Origin: Squalus acanthias | Lineage: Eukaryota | Assembly (NCBI GenBank): GCA_030390025.1 | Contig: CM059430.1 | Span: 97,092,001-97,156,000 of the forward strand | Direction: 5' to 3' | DNA: 64,000 bases | Shown: positions 16,336 to 62,985 of the stretch, piece after piece | Numbering within the stretch: position 1 is the first letter of the stretch | Layout of the letters: each line of letters starts with the position of its first letter | The notes under the pieces: model-generated | What the model was told of the DNA's origin: nothing | Databases searched by the model: none | What the model saw: the letters and a program-made list of their open reading frames with translations, nothing else | Position numbers and translations under genes: made by a program

Positions 16336-18955
16336 CACCCTCCTCTGCATGGCAGAACTTGTTCTCACATTGAACAACAACTTATTTGAGTTCATTCACT
16401 TCCTCCAAATTAAAGGTGTTGCTATGGGAACCCGCATAGGTCCTAGCTATGCCTGCCTTTTTGTGGGATATGTGAAATATTCTTTGTTCCAGTCCTACTT
16501 AGGTCCCTTCCCTCACCTCATTTCCTACTCTCGCCCTGAACTAGAAAATTTCATTCACTTTGCTTCCAATTTCAACCCTGTCCTCACCTTCACATGGTCC
16601 ATCTCCGACTCTTCTGTTTTCATTTCTGGGGATAGGCTATCGACAAACATCCACTATAAGTCCACTGACTTCCACAGCTACCTGGACTACACTTCCTCCC
16701 ACCCCTCTTCCTGCAAGGACTCTATTCCACTCTCCCAGTTTCTCTGTCTCCGTCGCATCTGTTCGGACGATGCCATCTTCCATACTAGTGCTTCCGATAT
16801 GTCTTCCTTTTTCCTCAACCGAGGATTCCCCCAACCGTGGTTGACATGGCCCTCGACGTGTCCATTCCACTTCCCGCACTTTTGCTCTAACCCCTTCCCC
16901 TCCCTCCCAGGACCACGATAGGGTTCCCCTTGTCCTCACCTTTCACCCCACCAGCCTCCACATTCAACAGATCATCCTCCACCATTTCTGCCACATCCAG
17001 CGTGATCCCACCGCCAAACACATCTTCCCCTCACCTCCTCTTTCAGCATTCTGAAGGGACCGCTCCCTCCGCGACACCCTGGTCCACTCCTCAAGCACCC
17101 CCAACGCCTCTTCCCCTTTCCACAACACCCTTCCCGTGCAAGCGCAGGCGATGCAACACCTGCCCTTTTACATCCTCCCTTCCCACTGTCCAGAGCCCCA
17201 AACACTCCTTCCAGGTGAAACAGCGATTTACTTGTACTTCTTGCAATTTAGTATACTGTATTCACTGCTCACGATGCGATCTCCTCTACAATAGGGAGAC
17301 CAAACGCAGATTGGGTGACCGTTCTGCGAAACACCTCCATTCAGTCCGTAAGTGTGACCCCGAGCTTCCGATCGCCTGTCACTTTAATTCTCCACTTCAC
17401 TCCCACTCTGACCTCTCTGTCCTTGGCCTCTTACACTGTTCCAATGAAGCTCAACGCAAGCTCGAGGAACAGCACCTCATCTTTCAATTAGGCACTTTAT
17501 AGCCTTCTGAACTCAACATCAAGTTCAACAATTTCAGACCATAACCTCTGCCCCTATTTTTTTTTTTACATGGCTGCTGTTGATGATTCTGCCATTCCCA
17601 TTTACACCTCTTCTAGACTCATCTTTTGTTGAAACAGAGAGTATTGGTGAATGGTTGTTTATCGGACGGGAGGAAGGTATACAGTGCTGTTCCCCAGGGG
17701 TCGGTGCTAGGACCACTGCTTTTCTTGATATATATTAATGACTTGGACTTGGGTATAGAGGGCACAATTTCTGAATTTGCAGATGAGACATAACTTGGAA
17801 GTATAGTCAACAGTGAGGAGGATAGTGATAGACTTCAAGAGGACATAAACAGGCTGGTGGAATGGGTGGACACGTGGCAGATGAAATTTAACGCAGGAAA
17901 GTGCAAAGTGATACATTTTGGTAGGAAAAATGAGGAGAGGCAATATAAACTAAAGGGTACAATTCTAAAGGGGGTGCATGAACAGAGACCGGGGGTATAT
18001 GTGCACAAATTGTTGAAGGTAGCAGGGCAGGTTGAGAAAGCAGTTAAAAAAGCATACGGGATCCTGGGCTTTATAAATAGGGGCATGGAGTACAAAATCA
18101 AGGAAGTTATGATGAACTTTTATGAAACACTGGTTCGGCCTCAACTGGAGTATTGTGTCCAATTCTGGGTACTGCACTTTAGGAAGGATGTGAAGGCTTT
18201 AGAGAGGGTGCAGAGAAGTTTTACAAGAATGGTTCCAAGGATGAGGGACTTCAGTTACGTGGATAGACTGGAGAAGCTGGGGTTGTTCTCCTTAGAGCAG
18301 AGAAGATTGAGAGGAGATTTGATAAAGGTGTTCAAAATCAAGGGGGGTCTCGACAGAGACAAACTGTTCCCATTGATGGAAGGGTCGAGAACCAGAGGAC
18401 ACAGATTTAAGGTGATTGACAAAAGAACCAAAGGCAACATGAGGAAAAACTTTTTTACTCAGCGAGTGGTTAGGATCTGGAATGCACTGCCTGAAAAAAT
18501 GGAGGCAGATTCAATCGTGGCTTTTAAAAGGGAATTAGATAAGGAAAACATTTTGCAGGGCTATGGGGAAAGGCAGGAGAGTGGGACTAGCTGAAGTGCT
18601 CTTGCAGAGAGCCGGCATGGGCTTGACAGGCCGAATGGCCTCCTTCTTTGCTGTAACCATTCTATGATTCTATTCTATGATTCTTTACTTGTCCCATTAC
18701 CATCTCCTTTTGCTTTGTACTATCATCCCTTTTGTCATTTAATCACTCCTGCCTTCCATCCTATCACAGACCTTCCCTTTTGTTCTTTCCTCCCCTCCAC
18801 CCTCTCCCTGCCCCTGCACTTGCTTAAAAATCTGTTACATCTCTAACTTTTTCCAGTTCTGACGAAAGGTCATCGACCTGAAACGTTAACTCTGTTTCTT
18901 TTTCCACAGATGCTGCCTGACCAGCTGAGTATTTCCAACATTTTCTGTTTTTATA
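16336..18955 (+). mobile_element. Penelope-like element (RT + GIY-YIG), 5'-truncated, interrupted by a CR1
   Basis: GVAMGTRIGPSYA RT motif; CKRRRCNTC and VYCIHC..ETKRRLGDR GIY-YIG motifs; terminal hammerhead at ~18855-18892. Confidence 0.9.
17630..18679 (+). mobile_element. CR1 LINE 3' part nested in the PLE
   Basis: VPQGSVLGP, WQMKFNAGKCKVIHFG, RPQLEYCVQFW; (TTCTATGA)-type tail; PLE sequence resumes on both sides. Confidence 0.93.
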
Positions 18956-23933: not shown

Positions 23934-24359
23934 CTGTCAGAAGAAACAAATCCATCACAGTTTAAAAGATTAAAATATTCCCCATTCAACCCTTCTCAAG
24001 AATGGTAGAAGACATTTGAATTTACTGTTCCCATAAATTCAGTTCTTTGTTTAAACCAGAACGGCTGTGAGATTATCCCTTAGGGGGAGGAAGGATCCAA
24101 AACAAATGGAGGATTTTTTCATTTTTCAAGATGAAGAACATCAGTGATAGGGAATGAAAGATTTTCTTTTCCAATTTGGTCCCCCAATGTCACTATCAAA
24201 CACTCCTATGTGAGATATGACACATTCAGCTTCCTTTACCCTGTTCTAACTAGCCTAACTAGTTCCTTAGCTCCAACCTCAGAAGAGAACCCTTTATTGC
24301 ACCAATGTGAATATCTAAACTTCATGCATTAGCCATCCTTTGAGACAAGTTGCCAATTA

Positions 24360-26612
24360 GTTATCTCCCTCTGAACTTGCAGCACTCCATTCTCCGAGAT
24401 CCAACCCTAACCTTGTCATTAGACCTGCTGACAAGGATGCCGGTATTGTTGTTTGGCGAACCAACCTCTACCTTGTGGAGGTTGAACACCAACTCTCTGA
24501 CACCTCCTCCTACCACCCCCTGGACCATGACCCCATCACCGAACATCAATCCATCGTTTCCAAGACTGTCACTCACCTCATCTCCGCTGGAGATCTTCCC
24601 TCCACAGCTTCCAACCTCATAGTCCCCCAACCCCGCACAGCCTGCTTCTACCTCCTTCCCAAGATCCACAAACAGGACTGCCCTGGTAGACCCATCGTTT
24701 CAGCCTGTTCTTGCCCCACAGAACTGATTTCTTCCTATCTCGACTCTTTTTTTTCTCTCCTTATCCAGTCTCTCCCTACCTACATCCGCAACTCTTACAA
24801 CGCCCTCTGCCACTTTAACAGTTTCCAGTTTCCTGGCCCTAACCATCTCCTTTTCACCATGGACATCCAATCCCTCTACACTTCAATCCCCCACCAGGAC
24901 GGCCTGATTGCTCTCCGCTTCTTCCTTGAACAGAGGCCCAACCAGTCACCATCCACCACCAACCTCCTCTGCCTGGCTGAACTTGTTCTCACATTGAACA
25001 ACTTCTCCTTTGACTCCACTCACTTCCTCCATATAAAAGGTGTTGCTATGGGAATCCATTTGGGTCCTAGCTATGCCTGCCTTTTCGTGGGATATGTGGA
25101 ACATTCTTTGTTCCAGTTCTACTCAGGTCCCCTCCCTCACCTCTTTTTCCGGTACATTGATGACCGTATCGGTGCCATTTCCTGTTCTCGCCACAAACTG
25201 GAAAATTTCATCAACTTTGTGTCCAATTTCCACTCTTCCCTCACCTGCATATGGTCCATCTCCGACTCTTCCCTTCCTTGACTTCTCTGTCTCCATTTCT
25301 GGGGATAGGCTATCAACAAATATCCACTATAAGCCCACTGACTCCCACAGCTACCTGGACTACAATTCCTCCCACCCGGCTTCCTGTAAGGAGTCTATTC
25401 CATTCTCACAGTTTCTCCGTCTCCGTCACATCTGTTCTGACGATGCCACCTTTCATACCAGTGCTTCCGATATGTCTTCCTTTTTCCTCAACTGAGGATT
25501 CCCCTCCACCATGGTTGACACGGCCCTCGACTGTGTCCGGTCCATTTCCCGCACTTCTTCTCTCACCCCTTCCCCTTCCTCCCAGAACCACGATAGGGTT
25601 CCCCTTGTCCTCACCTTCCACCCCACCAGCCTCCACATTCAACGGATCATCCGCCATCATTTCCGCCACCTCCAGCATGATCCCACCACCAAACACATCT
25701 TCTCCTTCCCTCCCCTTTCAGTATTCCGAAGGGACCGTTTCCTCCGCGACACCCTGGTCCACTCCTCTATCACCCCCATCACCCGCTCCCCTTCCCACAA
25801 CACCTTCCCATGCAAGTGCAGGAGATGCAACACCTGCCCTTTTACCTCCTCCCTTCCCACCATCCGGGGCCCCAAACACTCCTTTCCAGGTGAAACAGCG
25901 ATTTACTTGTACTTCTTGCAATTCAGTATACTGTATTCACTGCTCACGATGCGATCTCCTCTACATTGGGGAGACCAAACGCAGATTGGGCGACCGCTTT
26001 GCGGAACATCTCCGTTCAGTCCGTAAGGGTGACTCCGAGCTTTTGGTCGTCTGTCATTTTAATTCTCCGCCCCACTTCCACTCTGACCTCTCTGTCCTTG
26101 GCCTTCTACACTGTTCCAATGAAGCTCAACGTAAGCTCAAGGAACAGCACCTCATCTTTCTATTAGGCACTTTACAGCCTTCCAGACTCAACATTGAGTT
26201 CAACAATTTCAGTTCATAACCTTTGCCTCTATTTTTTCAGACAGCAGCTGTTGATAATGATTCTGATATTTCCATTTTCACCTCCTCTAGACCCATCTTT
26301 TTGTTTCTTTACTTGTCCCATTACCATCTCCTTTTGCCTTGCACCATCATCCCTTTTGTCATTTAATCTCTCCTGCCTTACACCCTATCACAGACCTTCC
26401 CTTTGTTCTTTCCCCCCTCCCCCTTTCCTTGCCTCTGTACTTGCTTAAAACCTGTTACATCTCTAACTTTTTCCCGTTCTGACGAAAGGTCATCGACCTG
26501 AAACGTTAACTCTGTTTCTCTCTCCACAGACGCTGCCTGACCTGCTAAGCATTTCCAGCATTTTCTGTTGTTATTTCAGACTTCCAGCATCTGCTGTATT
26601 TTGCTTTTGTAT
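24360..26612 (+). mobile_element. Penelope-like element (RT + GIY-YIG) with terminal hammerhead
   Basis: FYLLPKIHK, GRPIVS, MDIQSLYTSIP, GVAMG, FRYIDD; VYCIHC..YIGETKRRLGDRFAEH; hammerhead core at ~26476-26512; frameshifted. Confidence 0.94.
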
Positions 26613-27727
26613 TAGTGTCAGTTTTGTACTATGGGCTCATGCACACTAGAATATGGGTTGACAGTACTCGCATTCATTTCACACAGGACATTGCAGCAGA
26701 CAGAAAGAGAAGGTTTTCATCCCATCATCCTTGACTATTCACCCAGAAGTGAAAGTGCTGTGTGTTAACTCACTGCACCACCCTGTCTTAAAGTGATTTT
26801 AGAAAAGGATAGATAAATAAGTGACTTGTGCCAATCTTCCATATGTCCTAGTGGACTGTCACAAAATGGCCTGCAAAAAGAACTGTGAGCCCACTGTTGA
26901 TTAGAGAAATCTGTAATGACAGCGAAGGAGCCAATACAGAAGCAGGAAACCTTTTTTTATGGTGGGCAATGCAGAAGTAGAAACAAAAATGTACTTCAAA
27001 TATAGTTTAAACCAGTTAGGGACTGTTCTGTTTTGTTGTTCACAATCTAAGTCCTTTTTCAGATATATTTCCCACCACGTCAAAATGATTTGATTTTTCA
27101 ACCTCATATACCTTTGCCAATCAAATGTTGCATGCAAGGCACTCTGATATTGCTGAGGGGCATTCCATTAATTTAAGGATGTCATCAATGGTTCAGTGAG
27201 ATAAAAAAAAAAGGAACACTTAGCTTCCTATCCAAGTTATTACGTTGGTACTGAATGAACAGAATCATATTCGTGTGCAGGCTTTCCCAGGCATAAGTTT
27301 CATTAACCTCAGCTGGCCTTGGGAGAATAAGAAAAACTGACTTGAGGTAATTCCTGCCTACACTTCTCAAAGATGGTTCCTGATGGATCAACCAATTAGT
27401 GGCACTGATGTCCTCCATGGAGATATACCATCCTTATCAATGGTATCTAAGATACCTCTTGCTGGGCTGGGCAATCATATCCTCCTAACTGTACAGGGTA
27501 GTGCAGATGTGAGAAAATTACCGTAGAAGATTTCTTTTAAACAGTTAACACACAGAGGGAACTTCTGGCTGGTTGCCCCCATTTCTTTTTAAACTGCTCC
27601 TGATTTAGATCACTTTGGGTTTTCTACACAGATCTAAGTTTACCTTCTTGTACATGGAAATAGTAACAGTATTCTGAAATTATATGTCTGGAAAAGTCAC
27701 GCTTCATATTCAATGAGTTTCATTTAC

Positions 27728-30480: not shown

Positions 30481-30552
30481 CAGTTGTTCACTATCTTCCG
30501 TGGCTTTATAATATGGGCGGCCGATTTAACAATAAATTGTCCTAAAATCACC

Positions 30553-31765
30553 GCCCCCTCCTCCTCCTCTTCCCCTCCCCCCCTCTCCCTCTCCCCCCTT
30601 CTCCCCCACACTCCCTCTCTCCCCCCACTCTCCCTCTCCCCCTTCTCCCCCACACTCCCTCTCCTCCCCCTTCTCCCCCACACTCCCTCTCCTCCCCCTT
30701 CTCCCCCACTCTCCCTCTCTCCCCCCTTCTCCCCCACACTCCCTCTCTCCNNNNNNNNNNNNNNNNNNNNNNNNNNNNNNNNNNNNNNNNNNNNNNNNNN
30801 NNNNNNNNNNNNNNNNNNNNNNNNNNNNNNNNNNNNNNNNNNNNNNNNNNNNNNNNNNNNNNNNNNNNNNNNNNNNNNNNNNNNNNNNNNNNNNNNNNNN
30901 NNNNNNNNNNNNNNNNNNNNNNNNNNNNNNNNNNNNNNNNNNNNNNNNNNNNNNNNNNNNNNNNNNNNNNNNNNNNNNNNNNNNNNNNNNNNNNNNNNNN
31001 NNNNNNNNNNNNNNNNNNNNNNNNNNNNNNNNNNNNNNNNNNNNNNNNNNNNNNNNNNNNNNNNNNNNNNNNNNNNNNNNNNNNNNNNNNNNNNNNNNNN
31101 NNNNNNNNNNNNNNNNNNNNNNNNNNNNNNNNNNNNNNNCTCCCCCCTCTCCCTTCCTCCCTCTCCACCCCTCTCCCTTCCTCTCTCTCCCCCTCTCCCT
31201 CTCTCTCCCCCCTCCTCCCTCTCCTCCCTTCCTCCCTCTCCTCCTCTCCCCCCTCTCTCCCCTCCTCCCTCTTCCCCCTCCTCCCTCTTTCCTATCCTCC
31301 CTCCCCCCTCTCCCTCTCGCCCCTCCTACCTCTCCTCCCTTCCCCCTCCCCTTCCTCCCTTCCCCCCTCCCCTTCCCTTCCACCCCTCCTCCCCCTCCCC
31401 TCCCCCATCTCCCTTCACCCCCTCCCCTCCTCCTTTCCCCCCTCCTCCCCTCCCCTCCTCCCTTCCCCCTCCTTCCTTCCCCCCACTCCATTCCCCCCTC
31501 CCTTNNNNNNNNNNNNNNNNNNNNNNNNNNNNNNNNNNNNNNNNNNNNNNNNNNNNNNNNNNNNNNNNNNNNNNNNNNNNNNNNNNNNNNNNNNNNNNNN
31601 NNNNNNNNNNNNNNNNNNNNNNNNNNNNNNNNNNNNNNNNNNCTTCCCCCCTCCTCCCCTCCCTCCCTCCCTCCCATCCCCTCCTCCTCCTCCTCCCTCC
31701 CTCCTCCTCCCTGCCCTCCTCCTCTCTTCTCCCTCCTCCTCTCTCCCCTCCCAACCTTCCCTTCT
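30553..31765. repeat. polypyrimidine/polypurine low-complexity tract with two N gaps
   Basis: CCT/CCCT-rich sequence with short imperfect units; N runs at 30751-31139 and 31505-31642. Confidence 0.95.
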
Positions 31766-33124
31766 CCAAAACACACAGGAACCTCCTACTGCAGCGCAAC
31801 TTTATTTCGTGCTCCTTCCAATTTGAAGGCAGTGATTCATTAGAGGCAGCAGCCTCCGGTGCCTTGCTTATCTTTCAGTAATTGAGCAGCTGTAAGGCTA
31901 TTCAATAATGCAGATCTCCAGCAGGGATCACTGAACCAGAAGTAGGCAACCGTGGTGATTTCCCCCTCTCCCCCCTCCATTTCTCCCCTTCCCTCGCCCC
32001 TTTTCTCCACCCCCCATTTCTTCCCCCTTCCGGCCCCACCCCTCCCTCCCTCTCTTTCCGAATCAGTGTGGTTTGGTATCAAACCAGGTGGTATTGAGAC
32101 ATCAGGAAGTCACCCTTTTTATTTCAAATTGTCGGCGACAATTTTGGTGCCAAGGTTTTGAGTGTTATTAGGCACACACTGATTTAAATGATTCCCTAAA
32201 ATATACATAAATAAAATATCTGCCTTAAAATATAACCTCCTTTATGCTAGTGGTTTGCAGTCCCCTTCCCCAGCCACGAACACACAGCTAAGAACCTTCC
32301 TTCCAATCTTTGCACTGGCTGCTGGGCTTCTGGTCTTCGGTAAAAAAAAATGTTGGCAAACATGGTGTAGCGTTTACTGAAAGGTACATTGTCATTTCCT
32401 ATTTGCCCACATCATGTTTGTGATGTGCCACTTCGAATTAATACTATTAGTGAAATTTTTTTTAAACTTAGAAGTTAAATGAATGACTAATTAAAAATAA
32501 ATCCAGTTTATAATTGAATTATTAATTCATGTTTCATCTATTCATACCAAGACTCATTATGGAAAATCCAATTGTAAAAGTGTCACTTTTGCAAATTGTA
32601 GCCCCACAGCAATAGGTTATTAAAGTGCAAATGCAATTAAAACAATGATATAAGCTTCATCAGTTATGAATACATTAACAAAACAGTATGAGCAGTAGCA
32701 ACTAGCAACATCTCAAGTCCTTGGTGGCAATATTTTTAATGATTATCTTATCCAATAGTTCAGGCTAACTTATAGCTTGAATATAAAGTATAGGAGGAGG
32801 GGTAATATAAAAACAACTGAGCGCCACCCTAGTATTGCTGGGTCTGGAATGAGTTGCAGGTAATACGAATTGAAATATGGTTCTTACCTTGGATGCAAAG
32901 GTGGTATCTGACAGGTTTAAATGGAAATATCTGTTGCATATCTGGAGATTGTTGGTATATGGGTGGAATATCTGCTCCAGTGCATCAGGTGCACCAAATG
33001 CCATTATCTTTTGACTTAAAACATGCTACAAGACTTGTCCTTGCATTGGCTCTTGAACAGTAGAGATAAACCTCAAAGCTAACTCAGGTGTTCAAAATCT
33101 CAGGAACAGAGCTCACATTTTACA

Positions 33125-33455: not shown

Positions 33456-34336
33456 TTTTAAAGTACTTGTCAGGGATCTTGTCTTGCCATCTGATTTGCA
33501 TTAGTCGTCTCAGAAAATAAAATGCTGAAGAGTGATGGTGCAAGGACGCATCCTTGCTTGACACGATGTGTAATGGGAAAGGGGATGGAATTGTCCTCAT
33601 TTTCCATCACTCAAGTCATGTAATTGTTTGACCATTTTAATTAATTTGTCTGGACACCCAAATTTTAGAGGATTTTCCAGAGACCCTCTCCCCTCTACTG
33701 ATAATGTTGAATGTTGTTGCCAAGTCAATGAAGATCAGTAGAGGTCTACATTTTAGAACATAGAACATAAGACGTAGGAGCAGTAGGTTATTTGGTCCCT
33801 CGAGCCTGCTCTGCCATTCAATAAGATCATGGCTGATCTGATCTTGGCCTCAACTCCACTTCCCTGCCCGCTCCCCATAACCCTCGACTCCCTAACCATT
33901 CAAAAATCTGTCTATCTCCACTTTAAATATATTCAATGACCCAGCCTCCACAGCTCTCTGGGGAAGAGAATTCCAAACATTCACGACCCTCGGAGAGAAG
34001 AAATTCCCCTAATTTCCGTTTTAAATGGGTGCCCCCTTATTCTGAAATTATGCCCCCTAGTTCTAGATTCCCCCACGAGGGGCAACATCCTCTCTGCATC
34101 TACCCTGTCAAGCCCCTTCAGAATCTTATATGTTTCAATAAGATCCCCTCTCATTCTTATAAACTCCAATGAGTATAGGCTTAACCTTTCTTCAAAAGAC
34201 AACCCTTTCATCTCCGGCATCAACCTCGTGAACCTTCTCTGAACTGCCTCCAATGCAAGTATATCCTTCCTTAAATAAGGAGACCAAAACTCTACCCAGT
34301 ACTCCAGGTGTGGTCTCACCAACGCCCTGTACAGTT

Positions 34337-34759
34337 ACATAGAAACATAGAATCTAGGAGCAGGAGTAGGCCATTCGGCCCGTCGAGCCTGCTCCACCAT
34401 TCAATACGATCATGGCTGATCATCCAAATCCAGTACCCTGTCCCTGCTTTAATCCCCACAGTACACACATCCCACCCTACCCCTGTAACCCCACGTATTT
34501 AATTCCCCTAACATATCCCATCCTATCCCCATAACCCCACATATTTAATCCCCCCCTAACACTAAGGGTCAATTTTTTATCATAGCCAAATCAACCTAAC
34601 CCGCACATTTTTGGACTGTGGGAGGAAACCGGAGCACCCGGAGGAAACCCACGCAGACACGGGGAGAATGTGCAAACTCCACACAGACAGTCACCCAAGG
34701 TCAGATTCGAACCCGGGTCCCTGGCACTGTGAGGCACCAGTGCTAACCACTATGCCACC
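34337..34759 (-). mobile_element. HE1-type V-SINE nested in the CR1
   Basis: tRNA head (GGTGGCATAGTGGTTAGCAC..GGTTCGAATC), V domain (GTGTGGAGTTTGCACATTCTCCCCGTGTCTGCGTGGGTTTCCTCCGGGTGCTCCGG), CR1-like tail. Confidence 0.92.
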
Positions 34760-35657
34760 GTTGTAACAGGACTTCCCTACTTTTATACTCCATTCCCTTT
34801 GCAATAAAGGCCAACACTCCATTTGCCTTCCTAATTACTTGCTGTACCTGCATGCTAACTTTTTGTGATTCATGTACAAGGACCCCCAGATCCCTCTGTA
34901 CCTCAGCAATTTGTAATCTCTCCCCATTTAAATAATAATTTTCTTTTTTCTGTTTCCTACCAAAGTGGATAACCTCGCATTTGCCCACATTATACTCCAT
35001 CTGCCAAATTCCAGCCCACTCACTTAGCCTATCTATATCCCTTTGGAGATTCTTTGCGTCCTCCACACAATTTGCTTTCCCACCTATCTTTGCATCAGCA
35101 GCAAATTTGGCTACATTACATTTGGTCCCTTCATCAGTCACTAATATAGATTGTAAATAGTTGAGGCCACAGCACTGATCCCTGCGGCACCCCACTAGTT
35201 ACCGTTTGCCAACCTGAAAATGACCCATTTATCCCGACTCTCTGTTTTCTGTTAGTTAGCCAATCCTCTATCCATGCTAATATATTACCCCCAACCCCGT
35301 GAGCTCTTATCTTGTGTAGTAACCTTTTATGTGGCACCTTATCGAATGCCTTCTGGAAATCCAAATACACCACATCTACTGGTTCCCCTTTATCCACCCT
35401 GCTCGTTACATCCTCAAAGAACTCCAGCAAATTTGTCAAACATGATTTCCCTTTCATAAAACTATGCTGACTCTGCTTGACTATATGATGATTTTCTAAA
35501 TGTCCTGCTACCACTTCCTTAATGATGGACTCCAGCATTTTCCCAATGACAGATGTTAGGCTAACTGGTCGATAGTTGCCTGCTTTCTGTCTCCTTCCTT
35601 TCTTAAATAGGGGCGTTACATTTGCAGTTTACCAGTCCACTGGGACCTCTCCAGAAT

Positions 35658-36916
35658 TGAGAGGTCGCACAACACCAGGTTATAGTCCAACAGTTTTATT
35701 TGAAATCACAAGCTTTCGGAGCTATCGATTTGCTCCTTCCTCAGGTGAAGTAAATTAGATACAGAATCGCCAAAGCATATATAGATAGAAAACAAAGCAT
35801 GTGTACTTTACAATTGCAGACCAATAAATTAAATCATCCTGACTATCTGCCGAGGTGTGATAAAGTTAATTAAGTCAGCAGGAAGGTACCACATCAAAGA
35901 CATAGCAAGATACAACTGAGACAATGAGGTGTAGTCGCAGGGGTTCTAACGTGTCAAAAGCTGCCGTCTGTATGTAAAACGAAAAGCTTTAACATTTTTT
36001 TACTGGGAAAATTTTTACTTTTTTTTACTGGGAATCACATCTGTGAACAAGCTAACGACGACTCGAGTCCGGATCACGTCATGTATCGTGACATAAACCC
36101 AAGATCCCGATTGAGACCGTCTTCATGAGTGCGGAACTTGGCTATCAGTTTCTGCTCGATGATTTTGCGTTGTCGTGTGTTTCTAAGGTTGCCTTGGAGA
36201 ACGCTTACCCGCAGATCCGAGGCTGAATGTCCTTGACTGCTGAAGTGTTCCCCGACTGGGAGGTAACAATCCTGCCTGGCGATTGTTGCGCGGTGCTCGT
36301 TCATACGTTGTCTCAGTGTCTGCATGGTCTCGCCGATGTACCATGCCGCGGTGCATTCTTTCCTGCAACGTATGAGGTAGACAACGTTGGCCGAGTCACA
36401 TGAGTATGTACCATGTACCTGGTGGGTAGTGTCCTCACGTGTGATGGTGGTATCTGTGTTGATGATCTGGCATGTCGTTAGCTTGTTCACAGATGTGATT
36501 CCCAGTAAAAAAAGTAAAAATTTTCCCAGTAAAAAAATGTTAAAGCTTTTCGTTTTACATACAGACGGCAGCTTTTGACACGTTAGAACCCCTGCGACTA
36601 CACCTCATTGTCTCAGTTGTATCTTGCTATGTCTTTGATGTGGTACCTTCCTGGCTGACTTAATTAACTTTATCACACCTCGGCAGATAGTCAGGATGAT
36701 TTAATTTATTGGTCTGCAATTGTAAAGTACATATGCTTTGTTTTCTATCTATATATGCTTTGGCGATTCTGTATCTAATTTACTTCACCTGAGGAAGGAG
36801 CAAATCGATAGCTCCGAAAGCTTGTGATTTCAAATAAAACTGTTGGACTATAACCTGGTGTTGTGCGACCTCTCAATTTTGTCCACCCCAGTCCAACACC
36901 GGCATCTCCGCATCAT
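35658..36916. mobile_element. Penelope-like element (family 2) with 405-bp inverted repeats around a GIY-YIG fragment
   Basis: Arms 35655-36059 and 36474-36878; minus-strand VVYLIRC..WYIGET..RQRMNEH..GLN; TSD GACCTCTCCAGAAT at 35644-35657 and 36917-36930. Confidence 0.92.
36785..36828 (+). ncRNA. minimal type I hammerhead ribozyme (PLE family 2); mirrored on the minus strand at ~35705-35750
   Basis: TCAC-CTGAGGA-A-GGAGC(loop)GCTCC-GAAA-GC-TT-GTGA: stem I, conserved core, stem II and palindromic AAGCTT stem III. Confidence 0.75.
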
Positions 36917-39807
36917 GACCTCTCCAGAATCCAGGGATTACAACCAATGCATCCACCTCTTTTAAGACTCTAGGATGCAGGCCATCGGGCCCAGGGGACT
37001 TGTCCACCTTTAGTCCCATTAGTTTGCCTAGTACTTTTTCTCTAGTGATAGTGATTGTTTTAAGTCTCCCCCCCCCCTCACCCCAATTGCCCCTTGATTA
37101 CCCATTATTGGGATGCTTTTAGTGTCTTCTACCATGAAGACCGATACAAAATATTTGTTCAAAGTCTCCGCCATTTCCCGTTATTAATTCCCCAGACTCT
37201 TCCTCTAGGGGACCAATGTTTACTTTAGCTACACTCTTCCTTTTTATATAGCTGTAAGAGCTCTTACTATCTGTTTTTATATTTCTTGCTCGCTTACTCT
37301 CTAAGCTATCTTCTCTATCATTTATTTAGTCGTCCTTTGCTGGTTTAAAAAAATTTCCCAATCCTCTGGCCTTCCACTATTCTTCGCAACATTGTACGCT
37401 TTTGTTTTCAATTTGATACCATCCTTTACTTCCTTAGTAAGCCACAGATGGTTCATCCTTCAGAGTCTTTCTTTCTCTCTGGAATATATCTTTGCTGAGA
37501 GTTATGAAATAGCTCCTTAAATGTTTGCCACTGTTTTTCTACAGTGTTACCCTGTAATATATTTTCCCAGTCCACTTTAAACAAGTCTGCCTTCAGACCT
37601 TTGTAATTACCTTTATTTAAGTTCAGGACACCAGCTTGAGACAGAGTTTTCTCACTCTCAAACTGAATTTGAAATTCTACTATGCTATGATCACTCTTCC
37701 CAAGAGGATCCTTCATTTCGAGATCATTAATTAATCCAGCCTCGTTACACATTACCAAATCTAAAATAGTCTTCTCCCTGGTAGGTTCCACAACGTATTG
37801 TTCCAAGAAACCATCCCTTATACACTCTAAGAACTCTTCAAGTCTACCTTTGCCAATTTGCTTTGTCCAATCAATATGAAGATTAAAATCTCCCATGATT
37901 ATAGCCATACCTTTCTTACAAGCCTATTATTTCTTGATTTATACTCTGTCCTACAGTGTGGCTACAGTTTGGGGCCCTGTAGACCGCTCCCACCAGTGAC
38001 TTCTTGCCCTTATTTCTTATCTCCACCCAAACTAATTCTACATCTTGATCTTCTAAGCCAATATCATTTCTCATTACTGCACTGATCTCATCCCTTATTA
38101 ACAGAACTACACCACCTCCTTTTCCTTTCTACCTATCCTTACAAAATGTCAAATACCCCTGAATATTCAGTTCCCAGCCTTAGTCACCTTGCAACCACAT
38201 CTCTATAATGGCTATCAGATCATACCCATTTATTTCTATTTGTGCTGTCAACTCATCTATCTTGTTACGAATGCTGCGTGCGTTCAGATTGAGCTTTTAA
38301 TTTTGTCTTTTTACCATTTTTCCCGACTCTAACCCCTCTTTCTGATGCACTCGTGTATACACTTTGTCCCTTCCTGTCACACTCCAGTTATCATTACCCC
38401 AATCGCTACCCTTCTCATTTTCCTTTGACTTTTTAAATTTCTGCTCAGCAAATCCCCCCACCCCCACTATTTAGTTTAAAGCCTTATCTACAGCCCTAGT
38501 TATTCGATTCGCCAGGACACTGGTCCCAGCCTGGTTCAAAAGAAGCCCGTCCCGACGGAACAGCTCCCTCTTATCCCAGTACCCCAAGAATCGAAACCCA
38601 TTTCTCCCACACCAATCTTTGAGCCACTCATTCACCTCTCTGATCTTATTTACCCTATGCCAATTTGCACATGGCTCAGGTAGTAATCCAGGAGATTATT
38701 ACCTTTGTGGTTCTGCTTTTTAATTTAGCCCCCAACTGCTCACACTCCCTCAGCAGAACCTCTTTCTTTGTCCTATCTATGTCGTTGGTACCTACATGGA
38801 CCACGACAACTGGATCTTTCCCCTCCCATTCTTAGGTTCCTCTCCAGCCCAGAGAAGATGTCCTTTTGCTCTCTACATTTTTCTTGGGGCTGTCTGACTG
38901 CAAAGATCATATCAGTTGTGCCTCTTCCCTTTTTGAACCCATATTGACTTTCTCGCGAGAGGTGAAATGGCTGTTGAACTCTGAAAACACTGTAGTGGTG
39001 CATACTATTCATGATAAATGGTACAGGAGATAAGTGATCAGCAACAAACACCAGTTTTATTTGCCAAAATTATACTGCTTATAAAACTATTTATTAAAAA
39101 CTTCATTTAGATAGCATTTTTGACACTATGAACACAGATCAGGGTATCTTCAAACTATTTTTTTCAAAAAATAAGAGTTTTATTTTTACATCCTTTATGA
39201 ACAAAGCACATTAAACAGATCCTGTGGGCAATATGACTAATAAACAAGCCCTCTCCCAAGTTGATACGTTACCAACATGAATGTATGCTTTGTAGCAACA
39301 TCCTAGATATACTGAATGATTGACCTAAATTAACTACAACTTCTTAGATATCCAAAACAACTAAAATTAGAAGTTTTCATGACATGCACTTAATGCCAGT
39401 ATCTAATGATTTTTGGATATAAATTACTGGTTAATGAAACTATTAAATTATAATTAATGTTTCACTGCAACAGCTATCCCAAACACCACTCAAGGGATAT
39501 ATTTACTTATGGTCCAAGGCTCTTTAAAGACGTTCACCATATTCTGTATGTAATCTTATTATCCATACTCCTTAGATCAGGTTTCTGAAAAGGAACAACG
39601 CTACACTCTCAGGCAGCCTTCTTTCTTCAAGTAGTATGTTATCTATCATACTTCCTCCCTATAGTGGGAACCCAATAATGGTACCATATTTTTCTAATAT
39701 CGTCAGAATTGAATCAATAGGCATTGTGTAATTGTAAATTCAAGTGCCTTTGATACAATTTTCCTTCACTAACACCGTAACACAGGACAAAGGCCCTAAT
39801 GTGGGAA

Positions 39808-39973
39808 TGATGCGGAGATGCCGGCGTTGGACTGGGGTGGACAAAAGTGAGAAGTCGCACAACACCAGGTTATAGTCCAACAGTTTTATTTGAAATCACA
39901 AGCTTGCAGCTCCGAAAGCTTGTGATTTCAAATAAAACTGTTGGACTATAACCTGGCGTTGTGCGACTTCTCA
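39808..39973. mobile_element. miniature palindromic PLE family-2 insertion
   Basis: TSD CTAATGTGGGAA at 39796-39807 and 39974-39985; ~59-bp arms 39847-39905 / 39917-39975. Confidence 0.9.
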
Positions 39974-40309
39974 CTAATGTGGGAAGGCAAAGGAAGAGAT
40001 TAGTGTTTATGGTGATCCTTCATCCACAGATAGGTGCAGTAGTGAACCTTTTTATTTAAAACCATGATCAACATCCTCCCTTAAACTCTTAATAAAAATA
40101 AAGCATAGTGAATGCATTAATCACAATATACCATTTTTGTGGTGGTGGAAATGGGGTCCAGGCATCATAACTTTCAAGGAAAGGGAAGTGTAGCCACAGT
40201 GCAATCAACAAAAGGATAGAATCCATCTTGGAGTCATTTTAAATACTGCTGTACTGAATAATGAGGAAAAATTAGGAAAAAAGTCAACACAGCTGTCCGA
40301 AAAGACAGA

Positions 40310-51410: not shown

Positions 51411-51540
51411 TTCTGACGAAAGGTCATTGACCTGAAAAGTTAATTCTGTTTCTCCCTCCACAAGTGCTGCTTGACCTGCTGAGTAGGTGCAGCATTTTCT
51501 TTTTTTTTATTTCAGATTTCCAGCATCCACAGTATTTTGA
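51411..51540 (+). mobile_element. PLE family-1 terminal fragment with mutated hammerhead
   Basis: CTGACGAAAGGTCATTGACCTGAAAAGTTAA. Confidence 0.8.
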
Positions 51541-52659
51541 CACCAAGAAAGTAGTAGAAGTTTTAAAAAAAAAATAAAACCAGTGGTAGAAGTTTGCAGT
51601 TAGTTTCAACTTTTACATGACAGTAAGTATTACAGTGTAAGTAGAAGGGGGTTCCTGTAAAAGGCAGAACGTGCACTTCTGTGCAGGTCATTCCTCATCC
51701 TCCAAATGAGGGGTGCTGGGAGTTAAAAATGAGACACAGCGAGAGCGATTACAGGAACCAAAAATTTACCATTCTACCAGCCAGATATAAATGTGTCACT
51801 TAGATGTACAAGTTTCCTTTAGATCAAGGGAAGTGAGATTTAAGCCAGCTAGTCCAAACATAGCTATCAACGCAGAAGGCGAATTTACCCAGGAGCAGAA
51901 GATCAAAGAAGTCTCGCTATCACCTCTGCGGACATATGTTCATCACTCTGTCTCAAGAGGTTAGCACCATTATTCCAGAGAAGGACAAAGCAACCAGCTC
52001 TACTATGCCAACTCATAAGGATGATTTCGCCCAAGTTCTGGATACATTGCTAACTACGAGTACATAAGACTTTAACCTATTTGGCTATCTAATACTGTTA
52101 ACTTGTCAGCTATCAAAGGAGTCTAATCATAAATTAATCTCACCAATTTATATCAATCTTGATCATGGATCTTACTGTCAAATAATATTCAGCAGGCCAG
52201 TTAATACTGAATTACCATGACATAACTGAACTACCTTTGTAGCCTCCATAATTCATATTCGTCAGTTAATCCTATCTACTAAACAATTTGCATACTCAAT
52301 GTCTAAATATAAATGCAGCTAATTATGATCATGAGATCAATCAAGAATCATTAGTTCATGACTTTATGGTTTGTCTGCTTCTTTTATGATTTGGCAAGAA
52401 CGGGTCAATTGATTCCCTCAGTAGGTTGTTCATATCCTAATATGAAGTTGGTAGTGTGAATGCTAACATAATCTGAACTGGTTGATGTAATACAGTTTGG
52501 CGAGCAAAACTCAGGCATCACTCTCTTGTCGGCATAGAGTGGGCAGTAAACCCCAGATGGTTCCTTGCTGAGGAAATAAAGTAAGGGTTAAGGATTCGTC
52601 GGACATTCATCTTCACCACTGACATTTTGTACTGGCTTCTGTGACTCGCGACGCGAGAG

Positions 52660-53612
52660 GGACCAGAGGAGGAACGGCAGAGTTAAAAGCAGCAGCGCCC
52701 GAGGCCAGAGACTAGAGGAGGAACAGCAGAGTTAAAAGCAGCAGCGCCCGAGACCAGAGACTAGAGGAGGAACGGCAGAGTTAAAAGCAGCAGCGCCCGA
52801 GACCAGAGACTAGAGGAGGAACGGCAGAGTTAAAAGCAGCAGCGCCCGAGGCCAGAGACTAGAGGAGGAACGGCAGAGTTAAAAGCAGCAGCGCCCGAGG
52901 CCAGAGACTAGAGGAGGAACGGCAGAGTTAAAAGCAGCAGCGCCCGAGACCAGAGACTAGAGGAGGAACGGCAGAGTTAAAAGCAGCAGTGCCCGAGGCC
53001 AGAGACTAGAGGAGGAACGGCAGAGTTAAAAGCAGCAGCGCCCAAGACCAGAGACTAGAGGAGGAACGGCAGAGTTAAAAGCAGCAGCGCCCGAGACCAG
53101 CGGCGACAGCAGGACCAGAGGAGCGGCAGAGTTAAAGGCAGCAGCGCCCGAGACCAGAGACTAGAGGAGGAACGGCAGAGTTAAAAGCAGCAGCGCCCGA
53201 GACCAGCGGCGACAGCAGGACCAGAGGAGGAGCGGCAGAGTTAAAGGCAGCAGCGCCCGAGACCAGCGGCGACAGCAGGACCAGAGGAGGAGCGGCAGAG
53301 TTAAAGGCAGCAGCGCCCGAGACCAGCGGCGACAGCAGGACCAGAGGAGGAGCGGCAGAGTTAAAGGCAGCAGCGCCCGAGACCAGCGGCGACAGCAGGA
53401 CCAGAGGAGGAGCGGCAGAGTTAAAGGCAGCAGCGCCCGAGACCAGCGGCGACAGCAGGACCAGAGGAGGAGCGGCAGAGTTAAAGGCAGCAGCGCCCGA
53501 GACCAGCGGCGACAGCAGGACCAGAGGAGGAGCGGCAGAGTTAAAGGCAGCAGCGCCCGAGACCAGCGGCGACAGCAGGACCAGAGGAGGAGCGGCAGAG
53601 TTAAAGGCAGCT
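52660..53612 (+). repeat. GC-rich tandem array (49-bp then 60-bp units) at the CR1 5' end
   Basis: About 9 units GACCAGAGACTAGAGGAGGAACGGCAGAGTTAAAAGCAGCAGCGCCCGA followed by about 7 identical 60-bp units from 53201. Confidence 0.95.
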
Positions 53613-54149
53613 ATCTGGGAGCGGGAGTGGATGGACCTGTGAGGGGGGAAAAAAAATCAAAGTGTGATGTCACAGGAAAGCAGTTAAGTGATTGGTTGCT
53701 GAGTATTTCTCTCTCTAAACTAGGGCATTGGTTTAAATTAAGAGCCATGATTATAGATTAAAAACTATACATAGATAATTGAGTGATTTTCAAAACTTGA
53801 AAACCTAATTAGTTAAATAAAATACAATAGAGATGGCAGGGCAGGTGATGTGTTGCAACTGTAGCATGTGGGAGCTGGTGGACCCCAGTCTGATCCACAG
53901 CAACCACATCTTCAGCTCGAGGAACTTCGGCTCAGAGTTGATGAGCTGGAGTCCGAGCTTCAGACACTGCGACGCATCAGGAAGGGGGAGAGTTACCTGG
54001 ACTCTTTGTTCCAGGAGGCAGTCACACCCCTTTGGTTAAATACTTCAAATTTGGGCCGTGGTCAGGGACAGGAGGGTGCGACTACAAGTGAGGCAGGTAT
54101 GGGGATCCAGAAGGTAGCATTGGAGGAGCCTCAGCTCTTGCTCTTGTCC

Positions 54150-57435: not shown

Positions 57436-60400
57436 TGCTTTTGTCCAACAGGTACGAGGCTCTTGCAGCCTATGTGGACGAGAGCAGGGACTGCAGGGAG
57501 GATGAGCAAACTGACCACAGCACTGAAGTACAGGTGGCCATTCAAGCTGGGGGAGTAAAAAGGAATGTAGTAGTATTAGGGGACAGTATAGTTAGGGGGA
57601 TAGATACTGTTCTCTGCAGCCGAGAGCGTGAATCCTGAAGGCTGTGTTGCCTGCCTGGTGCCAGGGTTAAGGACATCTCCTCGGGGCTGGAGAGGAAGTT
57701 GGAGTGGGAAGGGGAGGATCCAGTTGTTGTGGACACGTAGGTACCAATGACATAGGTAAGACTAAGAAAGAGGTTCTGCTGAGGGAGTATGAGCAGCTAG
57801 GGGCTAAATTAAAAAGCAGAACCACAAAGGTAATAATCTCTGGATTACTACCTGAGCCACAAGCAAATTGGCATAGGATCAATAAGATCAGAGAGTTGAA
57901 TGCGTGGCCCAAAGATTGGTGTGGGAGAAATAGGTTTCGATTCATGGGGCACTACCACCAGTACTGGGGAAAGAGGGAACTGTTCTTTTGGGACAGGCTT
58001 CACTTGAACCATGTCGGGACCAGTGTCCTGGCGAATCGAATAACTAGGGCTGCAGATAGGGCTTTAAACTAAATAGTTGGGGGGGGGGGGGGGTTCAGGT
58101 GAGGGGAAATTTAGAAAGTTAAAGAGAAAGAATAAGGCAATAGTGCAGGGTAGCGATAAGGGTAATGATAACCAGAGTGAATGTGACAGGAAAGGACAGA
58201 GCGTACAAATATAAGAGAGCACCAGCAAATAGGGTCAAAGTAGGGAAAAATGGTAAAGAGACAAAATTAAAGGCTCTTTATCTGAATGCATGCAGCATTC
58301 GTAACAAGATAGATGAATTGACGGCACAAATAGAAATAAATGGGTATGATCGGATAGCCATTACAGAGACATGGTTGCAAGGTGACCAAGGCTGGGAACT
58401 GAATATTCAGGGGTATTTGACATTTTGGAAGGATAGGCAGAAAGGAAAAGGAGGTGGGGTAGCTCTGTTAAAGGATGAGATCAGTACAGTAGTGAAAAAT
58501 GATCTTGGCTCAGAAGATCAAGATGTAGAATCAGTTGGGTGGAGATAAGAAATAATAAGGGAAAGAAGTCACTGGTGGGAAGAGTCTATAGGCTCCCTAA
58601 CAGTAGCTACACTGTAGGACAGAATATAAATCAAGAAATAATGGGGGCTTGTAAGAAAAGTACTGCAATAATCATGGACGATTTTAATCTTCATACATAT
58701 TGGACAAATCAAATTGGCAAAGGTAGCCTTGAGGACGAGTTCATAGAGTGTCAAGACGGTTTCTTAGAACAAGACGTTGTGGAACCAACCAGGGAACAGG
58801 CTAATTTAGATCTGGTAATGTGTAATGAGACAGGATTAATTAATGATCTCATAGTAAAGGATCCTCTAGGGAAGTGATCATAACATGATAGAATTTCACA
58901 TTTAGTTTGAGGATGAGAAACTTGGGTCTGAAACTAGTGTCTTAAACTTAAATAAAGGCAATTACAAAGGTATGAAGACAGAGTTGGCTAAAGTGGACTG
59001 GGAAAATAGATTAAAAGGTAAGATGGTAGATAAACAGTGGCAGACATTTAAGGAGATATTTTATAACTCTCAACAAGGATATATTCCAGTGAGAAAGAAA
59101 GACTCTACGAGAAGGATGAACCACCCATGGTTAACTAAGGAAGTTAAGGATAGTATCAAATTGAAAGAAAAGGCATACAATGTTGCAAAGATTAGTGGTA
59201 GGCCAGAAGATTGGGAAATTTTTTGAAACCAGCAAAGGATGACTAAAAAAATAAAGAGGGAGAAAATAGATTGAGAGAGTAAACTAGCAAGGAATATAAA
59301 AACAGACAGTAAGAGCTTCTACAAGTATATAAAAAGGAAGAGAGTAGCTAAAGTAAACATTGGTCCATTAGAGGATGAGACTGGGGAATTAATAATGGGA
59401 AACAAGGAAATGGCACAGACTCTGAACAAATATTTTGTACCTGTCTTCACGGTAGAAGACACTAAAAGCATCCCAATAATAGTAATCAAGGGGCAAAAGG
59501 GAGGGAGGAACTTAAAACAATCACTATCACTAGAGAAAAAGTACTAGGCAAACTAATGGGACTAAAGGCTGACAAGTCCCCTGGAGCTGATGGCCTGCAT
59601 CCTAAGGTCTTAAAAGAAGTGGCTGCAGAGACAGTGGATGCATTGGTTGAAATCTTCCAAAATTCCTTAGATTATGGAAAGGTCCCAGCGGATTGGAAAA
59701 CTGCAAATGTAACACCCCTATTTTAAGAAAGGAGGGAGACAGAAAGCAGGAAACTATAGGCCAGTTAGCCTAACATGTCATTGGGAAAATGCTGGAATCC
59801 ATTATTAAGGGAGTAGTAGCAGGACATTTAGAAAATCATAATAAAACCATGTTGACTCTACTTGATTGTATGAAAGGGAAATCATGTTTGACAAATTTAT
59901 TAGAGTTCTTGGAGGATGTAACAAGCAGGGTGGATCAAGGGAACCAGTAGATTTAGTGTATTTGGATTTCCAGAAGGCATTCGATAAGGTGCCACATAAA
60001 AAGGTTACTGCACAAGATAAGAGCTCACGGTGTTGGGGGTAATATTAGCATGGATAGAGGATTGGCTAACTAACAGAAAATCGGGATAAATGGGTCATTT
60101 TCAAGTTGGCAAATTGTAACTAGTAGGGTGCCACAGGGATCAGTGCGGGGGCCTCAACTATTTACAATTTATATTAATGACTTGGATGAAGGGACCGAAT
60201 GTACTGTAGCCAAATTTGCTGACGATACAAAGATAGGTGGGAAAGCAAGTTGTGAGGAGGACACAGAGTCTGCAAAGGGATATAGATAGGCTAAGTGAGT
60301 GGGCAAAAATTTGGCAGATGGAGTATAATGTGGGAAAATGTGAGGTGGTTATCCACTTGGGTAGGAAGAATAGAAAAGCAAAATATAATTTAAATGGAGA

Positions 60401-62985
60401 GAGACTACAGAATGCTGCAGTACAGAAGGATCTGGGTGTTCTCGTACATGAAACACAAAAAGTTAGGATGCAGGGACAGCAAGTAATTAGGAAGGCAAAT
60501 GGAATGTTGGCCTTTATTGCAAGGGGGATGGAGTATAAAAGTAGGGAAGTCTTGCTACAACTGTACAGGGCGTTGGTGAGACCACACCTGCAGTACGGTG
60601 TACAGTTTTGATCTCCTTATTTAAGGAGGGATATACTTGTATTGGAGGCAGTTCAGAGAAGGTTCACTAGGTTGATTCCTGAGATGAAAGGGTTGTCTTA
60701 TGAGGAAAGGTTGAGCAGGTCAGGCTCTATTCAGTGGAGTTTAGAAGAATGAGAGGTGATCTTATTGAAACATAAGATTCTGAGGGGGCTTGACAGGGTA
60801 GATGCCGAGAGGATATTTTCCCTCGTGGGGGAATCTAGAACTAGGGGGCATAGTTTCAGGATAAGGGGTCGCCCATTTAAGACGAAGATGAGGAGGAATT
60901 TCTTCTCAGAGAGCCGTGAATCTTTGGAATTCTCTGCCCCATATAGAGCTGTGGAGGCGGAGTCAGTGAATATATTCAAGGCGGAGATAGACAGATATTT
61001 GAGCTACAGGGGAGTCAAAGGTTATGGGGAACAGGCAGGAAAGTGGAGTTGAGGCCAAGATCAGATCAGCCATGATCTTATTGAATGGCGGAGCAGGCTC
61101 GAGGGGCCAAATGGCCTACTCCTGCTCCTATTTATGTTCTTATGACTAGCTCTTCTGTACCTAGGATAAAAGAGGGGGATCTCCCTTGAACATTGCCCTG
61201 GTCATAATTACAGCTGTATTACCACCTACCGCTCTATAAGAAGTTAAGGGGTCTCAAATTTATCAATGACTCCTAAAGTCAATATCCAACACCATGGAAA
61301 TTGATAAATTTTACAGGTCCCTCTAAGTTTGCAGACTCTGCCCCCAAAAAAATGCAAACAGTTTAAAAAAAACACAGCTCATCTTGTATAGGAGCAACAA
61401 CCAGACCACATCTCTCCAATTTTGGAGAGGATAGACTGGCATAAAACAGGAAATAAATGGGAAGATTGGCAGAAGCAGGCATTTTTCTACCACTATTTGC
61501 CCAGATCATTTAACCCTAGCCATTTATAGGAACCTCTTTAGGATCAAGTAACAAATTATTGCTGCAGTGGAGTATACCTGCAATGTCTTTGGGGTTTTGC
61601 TGGCACTTTGAGCACCTCATCATGTTCCCCAAGATATTTTTCGCTCATAAGTACGGTCTAACTGCTTTATGTGGAAGCTTGGAAATATATAGTCTGGCAT
61701 TTTACTCCAAGGTGATTGGATAAAATCATATTCTCACTTCAAAAGTGTCACACTGGACCACTTCAGCCATTTCTTGGTATGACTATTTGCCATGGGAAGA
61801 ATGATGATCTTCAAAGAAGTATAGACCATCCTGGCAACCTAGTAGTTATGTAATTTTTAATTGGTGCAGTCATTCAACCAGTGCACCTGCTATGAATTCA
61901 TCCTCATTTACAAAGTACCCTGAAATACACCCCTAGCCCCATGCGCCCAATCTCTTAGATCCCATCTCAGGTGGCATGTGTTCTTTCCCTATTGCAATAA
62001 CTTCCTATAAATCAGGTGTTAGATGAGTATTGCAAAGGACAAGTAGACACCAATTATTACTCTAAATTAATCTATCTTGACTGGACTCAGCAACATTAAT
62101 TCAGATATCTCCAACCAAATCTGGAATGAAGAATTCTGAATACAGTAAATTCTAGGAGCTCTGATTTGCAACACAGTAGCCAGGAAAAGGTACATAAAAC
62201 AAAATCCTACTTGAGAATTGATGCTGCATTTGTAGATTAAAAAATAATTCAAAGGGCTACTCCAGGAAGTAGTTTCCTCTTTGCTCTCATTTGGATTCAG
62301 AAGAGCTCAGATTATTCAAACCATAGGTAACCTTAAACACAAACAAAGTAAGGGCTACGCAGTAGGATTAGCCAATACTCTCAAAAGCTGGGTAGGGCAT
62401 TGGCCAAAACCACTGGTCTTTCTAGAAGGAATCCAGAACCAAGACTAGTTGGATTGATGCAGCTACGTGGTAACCCTTTAATAGCTGTTATCCATCCATA
62501 ACAAATAATTTGATTGGTAGATTGTACTTGTGGGAGCGAAAGTCCGCATTACCCGAGTACCTCAAATGTTCTTTCTGGGAAGTCTGTGGAATCAGCACAG
62601 CATGTGCTTAAATTTGTTAAACATGCCTAAAAGCAAGGATATCTTCACAGGAAAGTAAAATAGTAGAATGTGTAAGAGTCATTCAGCCATAGCTGTAATG
62701 GTCTGGAATATGTCAGCTTGGTCACTTGTGTTTAGGGGAATGGGTAGAGTTTATGACAGCAATGAGGTCACTTGTGTTTATGGAAGTGCATGTTTGTTTA
62801 GTTCATGCTTATATTCTGTCGGCATTTGTATGCATCTTTGATGTACTATAATTTATTGGTGGTATGTTTGAAATGTAGTGGTGATCAAAGGTGAAATTTG
62901 ACATGAGAGGTGTGAATGAATCACTGTTCAGCAGCTCATACTGGAATCGTGAAGCATGTCTCAGAGCCCATACTGGTTCTGGATA

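Follow-up and report, generated by a model that had tools for sequence, protein, structure and literature searches.

Head-to-head insertions of a shark Penelope-like retrotransposon carry one tail each and were probably primed from both target strands

How does a retrotransposon come to lie in its host as two inverted pieces of itself between one pair of target site duplications (TSDs), with a terminal tail on only one of the two? The question is raised by a 64,000-nucleotide (nt) stretch of the Squalus acanthias genome (GCA_030390025.1, contig CM059430.1, positions 97,092,001 to 97,156,000 of the forward strand), here called the window, which holds three insertions of one family belonging to the Penelope-like elements (PLEs). 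Our analysis confirmed that all three are genuine head-to-head pairs of 5'-truncated arms, each between TSDs of 12 to 14 bp. They probably arose when both cut target strands served as primers for reverse transcription, a reading to which we give a probability of roughly 55%. Positions are those of the window, and statements about published work refer to the accessible parts of each source.

Three head-to-head insertions with one tail each

The largest insertion, copy 1 (about 1.26 kb), lies between exact 14-bp TSDs at 35644 to 35657 and 36917 to 36930 (plus strand). Its long arm (35655 to 36476, minus strand) runs from a 5'-truncated endonuclease remnant through a stop codon and the 3' region, or pseudo-long terminal repeat (pLTR), with a hammerhead motif, to an end that lacks the tail; the last 3 bases of the left TSD also match this end. 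The 443-bp short arm (36474 to 36916, plus strand) ends with the tail, and the arms meet head to head at 36474 to 36476 in a 3-base microhomology. Where they overlap (35652 to 36059 and 36474 to 36881), the arms are 99% complementary, with 3 differences in about 403 positions. A sequence-only reading of this DNA had drawn the two-ended inverted layout of copy 1, which stands; to it we add that the main copy is the 820-bp minus-strand arm, which is tail-less and carries the endonuclease remnant.

From 24 listed public sequencing runs we took four (X1, X3, X7, and X18) and aligned their Logan contigs on 36060 to 36940 at 82% likeness. Several bases that would distinguish subfamilies emerged, 36870 and 36876 among them. 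Loose ends at 36474 and 36476 showed the family running from the endonuclease into the 3' region (X7), and in all four runs the open reading frame (ORF) extends upstream beyond 36476. Because the contigs read upstream and across the boundary between the endonuclease and the 3' region, the junction at 36474 to 36476 is specific to copy 1.

Copy 1 interrupts a long interspersed nuclear element (LINE) on the minus strand (33762 to 38798), recognized from inverted-repeat pairs and from Pfam matches to Exo_endo_phos_2 on one side of the insertion and RVT_1 on the other; from its motifs, we take this LINE to be CR1-like. An uninterrupted paralogue lies in the same window at about 57734 to 61140. At about 59620 to 59690 of this paralogue (minus strand), the 14-mer of the TSD is present once, with 12 of 14 letters alike, and the sequence runs on from it into that of the right flank of copy 1. 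This stretch is therefore the empty site, and the TSD of copy 1 passed the comparison with an empty site that had been proposed as a check. In a control that drew 200,000 pairs of window positions at random and allowed 3 bases of slack on each side, 378 pairs were flanked by an exact 12-mer repeat and 561 by a 12-mer repeat with at most one mismatch. As judged by eye, the three target sites have no common motif in register with the TSD. A blastn search of copy 1 against the window returned its own inverted arms, both arms of copies 2 and 3, and the paralogous LINE, and no further copies of the family.

Copies 2 and 3 are much shorter (168 and 118 bp) and contain no ORF sequence. Copy 2 has a tail-bearing arm on the minus strand (39807 to 39905, equivalent to 36818 to 36916) and a tail-less arm on the plus strand (39906 to 39975) that begins about 10 bases more 5' in the element; the arms overlap by about 60 bp and are joined bluntly. 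Its 12-bp TSDs are exact (39796 to 39807 and 39974 to 39985, plus strand), the last base of the left one being common to the tail end and the first 2 bases of the right one common to the element. The tail-bearing arm of copy 3 (62985 to 63013, minus strand) consists of just the last 25 to 29 bases of the tail, and its tail-less arm (63016 to 63103, plus strand) includes the hammerhead core from 63018 with 2 bp of stem I. The 12-bp TSDs of this copy (62974 to 62985 and 63103 to 63114, plus strand) differ by one mismatch, and the first base of the right one is common to the element. At its junction (63010 to 63020) there is a 5-bp inverted repeat with a 1-base spacer. The arms of copy 3 do not overlap; the copy is inverted, not a palindrome. 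Thus, the three insertions with 12- to 14-bp TSDs described by the sequence-only reading were borne out in coordinates and structure (an exact match over 14 bp in copy 1 and over 12 bp in copy 2, and a single mismatch in the 12 bp of copy 3).

The outer ends follow one pattern. The tail, of about 38 nt (36879 to 36916, plus strand; 37 to 41 nt according to the side on which shared bases are counted), is present on exactly one arm of each insertion, and all three tail ends stop at the equivalent of 36916, the final base being also part of the TSD in copies 2 and 3 but outside it in copy 1. At the tail-less ends, the match to the element extends to 36878 in copy 1, 36877 in copy 2, and 36879 in copy 3, and 3, 2, and 1 bases, respectively, are shared with the TSD at this end. 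Their position is therefore fixed within about 3 bases, not to the single base. These ends agree with the earlier description of one end formed by the tail and the opposite end stopping about 38 nt short, and with its claim of two preferred 3' ends; the 2- to 3-nt TSD overlap noted for the first two copies was correct, and copy 3 also shares a base. The inner junction, said to vary, does differ among all three. Each arm has sequence missing from its partner in every copy, and the tail-less arm always extends further toward the 5' end of the element: into the endonuclease versus 36474 in copy 1, to about 36808 versus 36818 in copy 2, and to about 36787 versus about 36890 in copy 3.

Two further observations concern the tail. 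It ends on AT (36914 to 36917), followed by G in L002 (about 1005 to 1010), a metagenome contig with a related PLE end, and in two runs the weak consensus of the loose ends behind 36917 opens with these same four letters, at an agreement of 0.37. As judged from these letters, the ORF start codon may be where the tail stops; in the anole element, the tail lies inside the ORF.

The tail-less end lies in the apical loop of a predicted long hairpin (36841 to 36897, plus strand), whose 8-bp basal stem is kept in L002. Its predicted stability was not better than that of shuffled sequences (z of -0.43 to -1.36 for the hairpin and of -0.09 to -1.36 over the stretches folded), and no pair of the basal stem was altered on both sides among three sequences, so we treat a hairpin around the second start site only as a lead. 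In copy 2 (39830 to 39960), a T-to-C change at the equivalent of 36858 on one arm and an A-to-G change at the equivalent of 36898 on the other would match in an alternative helix; this is a single copy and presumes CpG decay in the other arm.

Probable priming from both cut strands and its rivals

The layout itself, an inverted pLTR with a one-sided tail of 30 to 40 nt and a TSD, is already published, and all three copies have it. PMC3846280 describes the typical insert as adjacent inverted pLTRs with a 31-bp tail on one of them and a 9-bp TSD, PMC8557442 draws the layout for all PLEs, and the curation guide PMC8969392 mentions it. Pen2a_Av of Adineta vaga (PMC3846280, PMC8557442) resembles the shark copies in its inverted, 5'-truncated copy placed head to head within one TSD, its tail of 30 to 40 nt on one end, and the minimal hammerhead in its pLTR; the shark units, however, are much smaller, their TSDs measure 12 to 14 bp against 8 to 10 bp in the rotifer examples, and their junctions mostly lack a clean palindrome. 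PMC8557442 counts the origin of inverted one-tailed structures among the questions still to be answered. What is new here is that in 3/3 copies no arm is wholly contained in its partner, an arrangement that, as read from sequence, argues against simple fold-back of complementary DNA (cDNA) and for twin or dual priming.

Both outer ends of each insertion are element 3' ends abutting the TSD, as priming from two strands would produce. We observed directly how the copies are built, their TSDs, the empty site, the family to which they belong, and the unique sequence of each arm, and from these observations we infer the enzymatic steps. A protein from an intact copy elsewhere would nick both target strands, 12 to 14 bases apart. 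One 3' end would then prime at the RNA position of the tail end, with complementarity of 0 to 1 base, and the other about 38 nt upstream, in the loop of the predicted hairpin, with complementarity of 1 to 3 bases. Both cDNAs would end early at variable points and be joined through microhomology of 2 to 4 bases, bluntly, or with short filler, and fill-in would yield the TSD. Overlapping arms (about 403 bp in copy 1 and about 60 bp in copy 2) would call for dual priming with two pLTR templates or for strand displacement; the nonoverlapping arms of copy 3 would fit twin priming on a single RNA.

Parts of this reading have precedents. The protein of the anole PLE cleaves and extends both strands in vitro, and two internal starts flank its tail (PMC11167929). 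This element, PAc (Poseidon) of Anolis carolinensis, has its tail delimited by two reverse transcriptase (RT) starts that lie about 34 nt apart, and the features of PAc that match our reading include a stem-loop at the start site, cleavage and extension of both target strands, and a predicted dimer. PAc belongs to the Poseidon clade, whereas the shark family has the extra Cys linker of Neptune and Nematis. The accessible text of PMC11167929 attributes the tail to the existence of two start sites and, by a search for the terms, leaves inversions and TSDs unaddressed. L1 twin or dual priming (PMC2837659) likewise yields two inverted fragments in one TSD, priming from both nicks, and microhomology or filler at the inner junction. 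In contrast to L1, the shark copies lack poly(A), and their second site is fixed within about 3 bases where that of L1 varies; their arms overlap in two of three copies, against the junction deletion of classical L1 twin priming. We found no paper stating twin priming for PLE inversions in the openly searchable literature; subscription reviews (2005, 2006) lay outside that search. The earlier proposal that both strands prime at two RNA positions thus survives as the best-fitting mechanism, with the qualification that parts of it had been published.

The contigs of the four runs bear on both the ends and the junctions. Among the best 24 of 919 rows of loose ends, those with diverse flanks pile up at 36916 and 36917 in X3 (68 and 58), at 36917 in X1 (68), and at 36918 in X7 (10), with flank agreement of 0.37 to 0.5; none was listed for X18. 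A same-strand skip from endonuclease to pLTR represents a head-to-head junction, because the reference has the endonuclease in antisense and the pLTR in sense orientation. Among the 15 joints listed of 37, 12 passed from antisense endonuclease to sense pLTR, 1 was a strand change inside the endonuclease, and 2 were same-strand deletions. The 12 rows listed of 28 in a second table gave 4 additional inversion-type joints once we had set aside 5 rows as duplicates and 3 as belonging to other types. The 16 inversion-type joints among those listed fall at 16 different pLTR positions: 6 have microhomology of 2 to 4 bases, 8 have filler of 1 to 10 bases, and 2 are blunt. Four of the 16 start at or inside the tail, and two, at 36874 and 36877, coincide with the second site (p of about 0.04 against a uniform distribution).

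Several points weigh against priming from both strands at two sites. Whole insertions number just three. The tail-less position has no loose end among the best 24 of 919 rows, and the contigs of the four runs show no site where many molecules begin or end. A drop in depth from 36870 to 36876 (ratios of 0.50, 0.83, 0.52, and 0.65) does not measure copy number, and a polymorphic base lies at the same place. The joints are short-sided (20 to 28 bases) and were aligned at 82% likeness, and nested antisense insertions are possible among them. A second, older PLE family in the window (24343 to 26627 and 16337 to 18954, with short copies at 9847 to 9997, 11618 to 11736, and 51411 to 51539) has neither an inverted arm nor an exact repeat of at least 8 bases across the ends in any of its five copies; these are more diverged (about 70 to 94% alike), with 5' limits that are harder to place, so that this family shows only that the inverted layout is not universal in what survives. 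As for the literature, PMC11167929 detected no dependence of the start site on the strand and reports priming without homology to the cut DNA, PMC3846280 favors self-priming, and PMC8557442 ascribes the tail to resolution by the endonuclease.

The strongest competitor, at perhaps half the weight of two-strand priming, combines the last two proposals. A cDNA begun at the tail end would fold back at an internal microhomology and copy itself through the tail; the endonuclease would then cut the first arm at the base of the tail, and the unit would be joined to the target. With simple fold-back, the second arm could hold nothing that the first lacks, so this origin is excluded unless the tail is later trimmed. 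With trimming, the tail-less arm should always reach further 5', as it does in 3/3 copies, and the near identity of the arms of copy 1 is in keeping with such an origin. There are also short palindromes by the junctions: copy 1 has a 10-mer at 36060 to 36069, just 5' of the element position at which its short arm starts, copy 2 has a 6-mer, and copy 3 has the inverted repeat. However, 10 of the 16 inversion-type joints listed have no microhomology and the copy 2 junction is blunt, the 1 to 3 bases common to the tail-less end and the TSD suit priming more than cutting, and in vitro both strands were extended on RNA, the ends being RT start sites (PMC11167929).

Less probable still is unprogrammed twin or dual priming, in which each strand would pick either start site independently and the one-tail pattern would reflect chance or mild bias. 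The lack of a strand-dependent choice of start site (PMC11167929) speaks for it, and mixed ends in three of three copies have a probability of 12.5% under equal independent choice; the strict pairing of one site with each end would thus rest on three copies. On the other side, a published legend (PMC8557442) has the tail often at one end only, and all three copies here are mixed.

We think it very unlikely that the short structures are non-autonomous subfamilies, fold-back DNA elements copied whole, or nested insertions. Summed depth at 36810 to 36899 is several-fold above that of most other parts of the reference in 4/4 runs, so short copies may be very common, although this depth is not a copy number, and the joints from 36138 to 36877 and from 36188 to 36853 each occur in two runs with the same organism code. 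Against this, the window junctions all differ, as do the pLTR positions of the 16 joints, the ends are asymmetric, and a single TSD pair encloses both arms. Miniature inverted-repeat transposable elements and fold-back DNA transposons have symmetric terminal inverted repeats and a common internal structure; we rejected both, as the ends differ by the tail in 3/3 copies, copy 3 lacks an inverted repeat, and the junctions differ. A classical product of L1-type twin priming was rejected on the absence of poly(A), the fixed second site, and the overlap in two of three copies.

A shark family with a minimal hammerhead motif

The Penelope-like identity proposed earlier is backed by the copy 1 endonuclease remnant (36074 to 36478, minus strand), which matches PF01541 (E value of 9.7e-5; 23 bits against a cutoff of 22.6) and is 88% identical to P0001, an RT-plus-endonuclease protein of the shark Heptranchias perlo that falls in a cluster of 54 members. 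Read on the minus strand from 36478, it gives 134 residues of the C terminus of a GIY-YIG endonuclease and then a stop. Among protein relatives, 46 of 74 candidates passed, and the best were from sharks. The CCHH motif, in which two Cys stand between GIY and YIG (definition from PMC8557442), is present in the window remnant and in 7/8 relatives, the eighth (P0061) having no match to the GIY-YIG pattern. RVT_1 and a DKG motif lie upstream of the endonuclease in P0001, P0010, and P0026, and not in the truncated window copies. All eight relatives examined have a CX2-5CxxC linker upstream of the endonuclease, a feature of the Neptune and Nematis clades (PMC8557442); the window remnant ends at the last Cys of this linker, and the loose ends behind 36476 supply upstream codons in 4/4 runs. 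By these sequence features, the family is a young, shark-type, endonuclease-bearing PLE with a Neptune/Nematis-type linker, which fits either clade.

The short arm of copy 1 contains a predicted minimal type I hammerhead (36785 to 36827, plus strand) with a 4-bp stem I, a core at 36789 to 36795, one unpaired A, a 5-bp stem II, and a GAAA loop. A palindromic AGCU replaces stem III, and cleavage is predicted after 36823. The long arm has the same minimal motif at 35706 to 35748 (minus strand; core at 35744). In its core, extra base before stem II, G-C closing pair, palindromic 15.2-16.2 positions, and short stem I, the motif resembles the minimal type I hammerheads of metazoan PLEs, with no difference of substance (PMC4209133); here it is a predicted motif, whole only in copy 1, where both arms have it. 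An Rfam scan of the window at gathering scores gave 0 matches. The relative L002 keeps the motif, and one of its stem I pairs differs at both of its bases.

The minimal hammerhead noted earlier is supported, but the idea of ribozyme-containing palindromes down to about 120 bp fails, because both arms of copy 2 start 3' of the core and have no CUGANGA box, and copy 3 has nonoverlapping arms and only 2 bp of stem I. Minimal metazoan PLE hammerheads are described as dimer dependent (PMC4209133), whereas a head-to-head pair places a single sense hammerhead on any one transcript.

Searches beyond sharks returned little. A 24-base pLTR pattern had 0 matches in metagenome contigs, P0001 gave 1 unconfirmed candidate in viral contigs, and two prokaryotic loci found with a 19-base pattern (L005 and L006) were rejected as chance, just 19 to 20 bases being alike. 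Alignment A1 yielded 4 loci from 56 candidates in metagenome contigs; none held a clear tail-plus-TSD unit, and only L002 has the pLTR in common. L002, a 1,663-bp low-coverage marine contig with seemingly unrelated flanks and possibly a chimeric assembly, contains at 523 to 1010 a related PLE end with an endonuclease remnant, the hammerhead, and the same basal stem. L003 has a decayed remnant of a PLE endonuclease and, about 130 bp upstream of it, a 62-bp near-perfect palindrome (2150 to 2211) that could be an old head-to-head junction. Endonuclease pieces also occur in isoforms predicted for host genes of sharks (septin 5a, XRCC5, cytochrome P450, and others; P0012, P0019, P0020, P0025, P0028, P0029, P0043, and P0045), reflecting exonization or gene model artifacts.

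Other features of the window and the meaning of the layout

The second PLE family has RT and endonuclease remnants and a minimal hammerhead motif. It shows a longer end (9997 and 26627) and shorter ends about 25 to 50 bases upstream, and its copy at 16337 is split by an insertion at about 17628 to 18677. Elsewhere in the window are two adjacent tandem arrays (52560 to 53671) with 49-bp and 60-bp units, whose core is 97 to 99% alike and whose unit sequence is mostly common, and a C/T-rich low-complexity stretch (30530 to 32030) with two assembly gaps (30751 to 31139 and 31505 to 31642).

Priming from both strands might even be a hard-wired route, in which a dimeric ribonucleoprotein directs one target strand to the start site at the tail end and the other to that in the hairpin loop, 38 nt upstream; we regard this stricter form as possible and rather doubtful. 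If it were true, nearly every insertion would be a head-to-head unit with exactly one tail. The inverted pLTR and one-sided tail found throughout the class would then amount to obligatory asymmetric twin priming that replaces second-strand synthesis, and the thousands of very short copies in shark genomes would make the pattern readable.

With the layout itself known, the value of these insertions is as a test bed for mechanism. The family is young and apparently abundant, with intact TSDs and insertions of 120 to 1,300 bp, so the rival models could be separated by counting how ends are paired, which arm reaches further 5', subfamily mismatches between arms, and the chemistry of the junctions.

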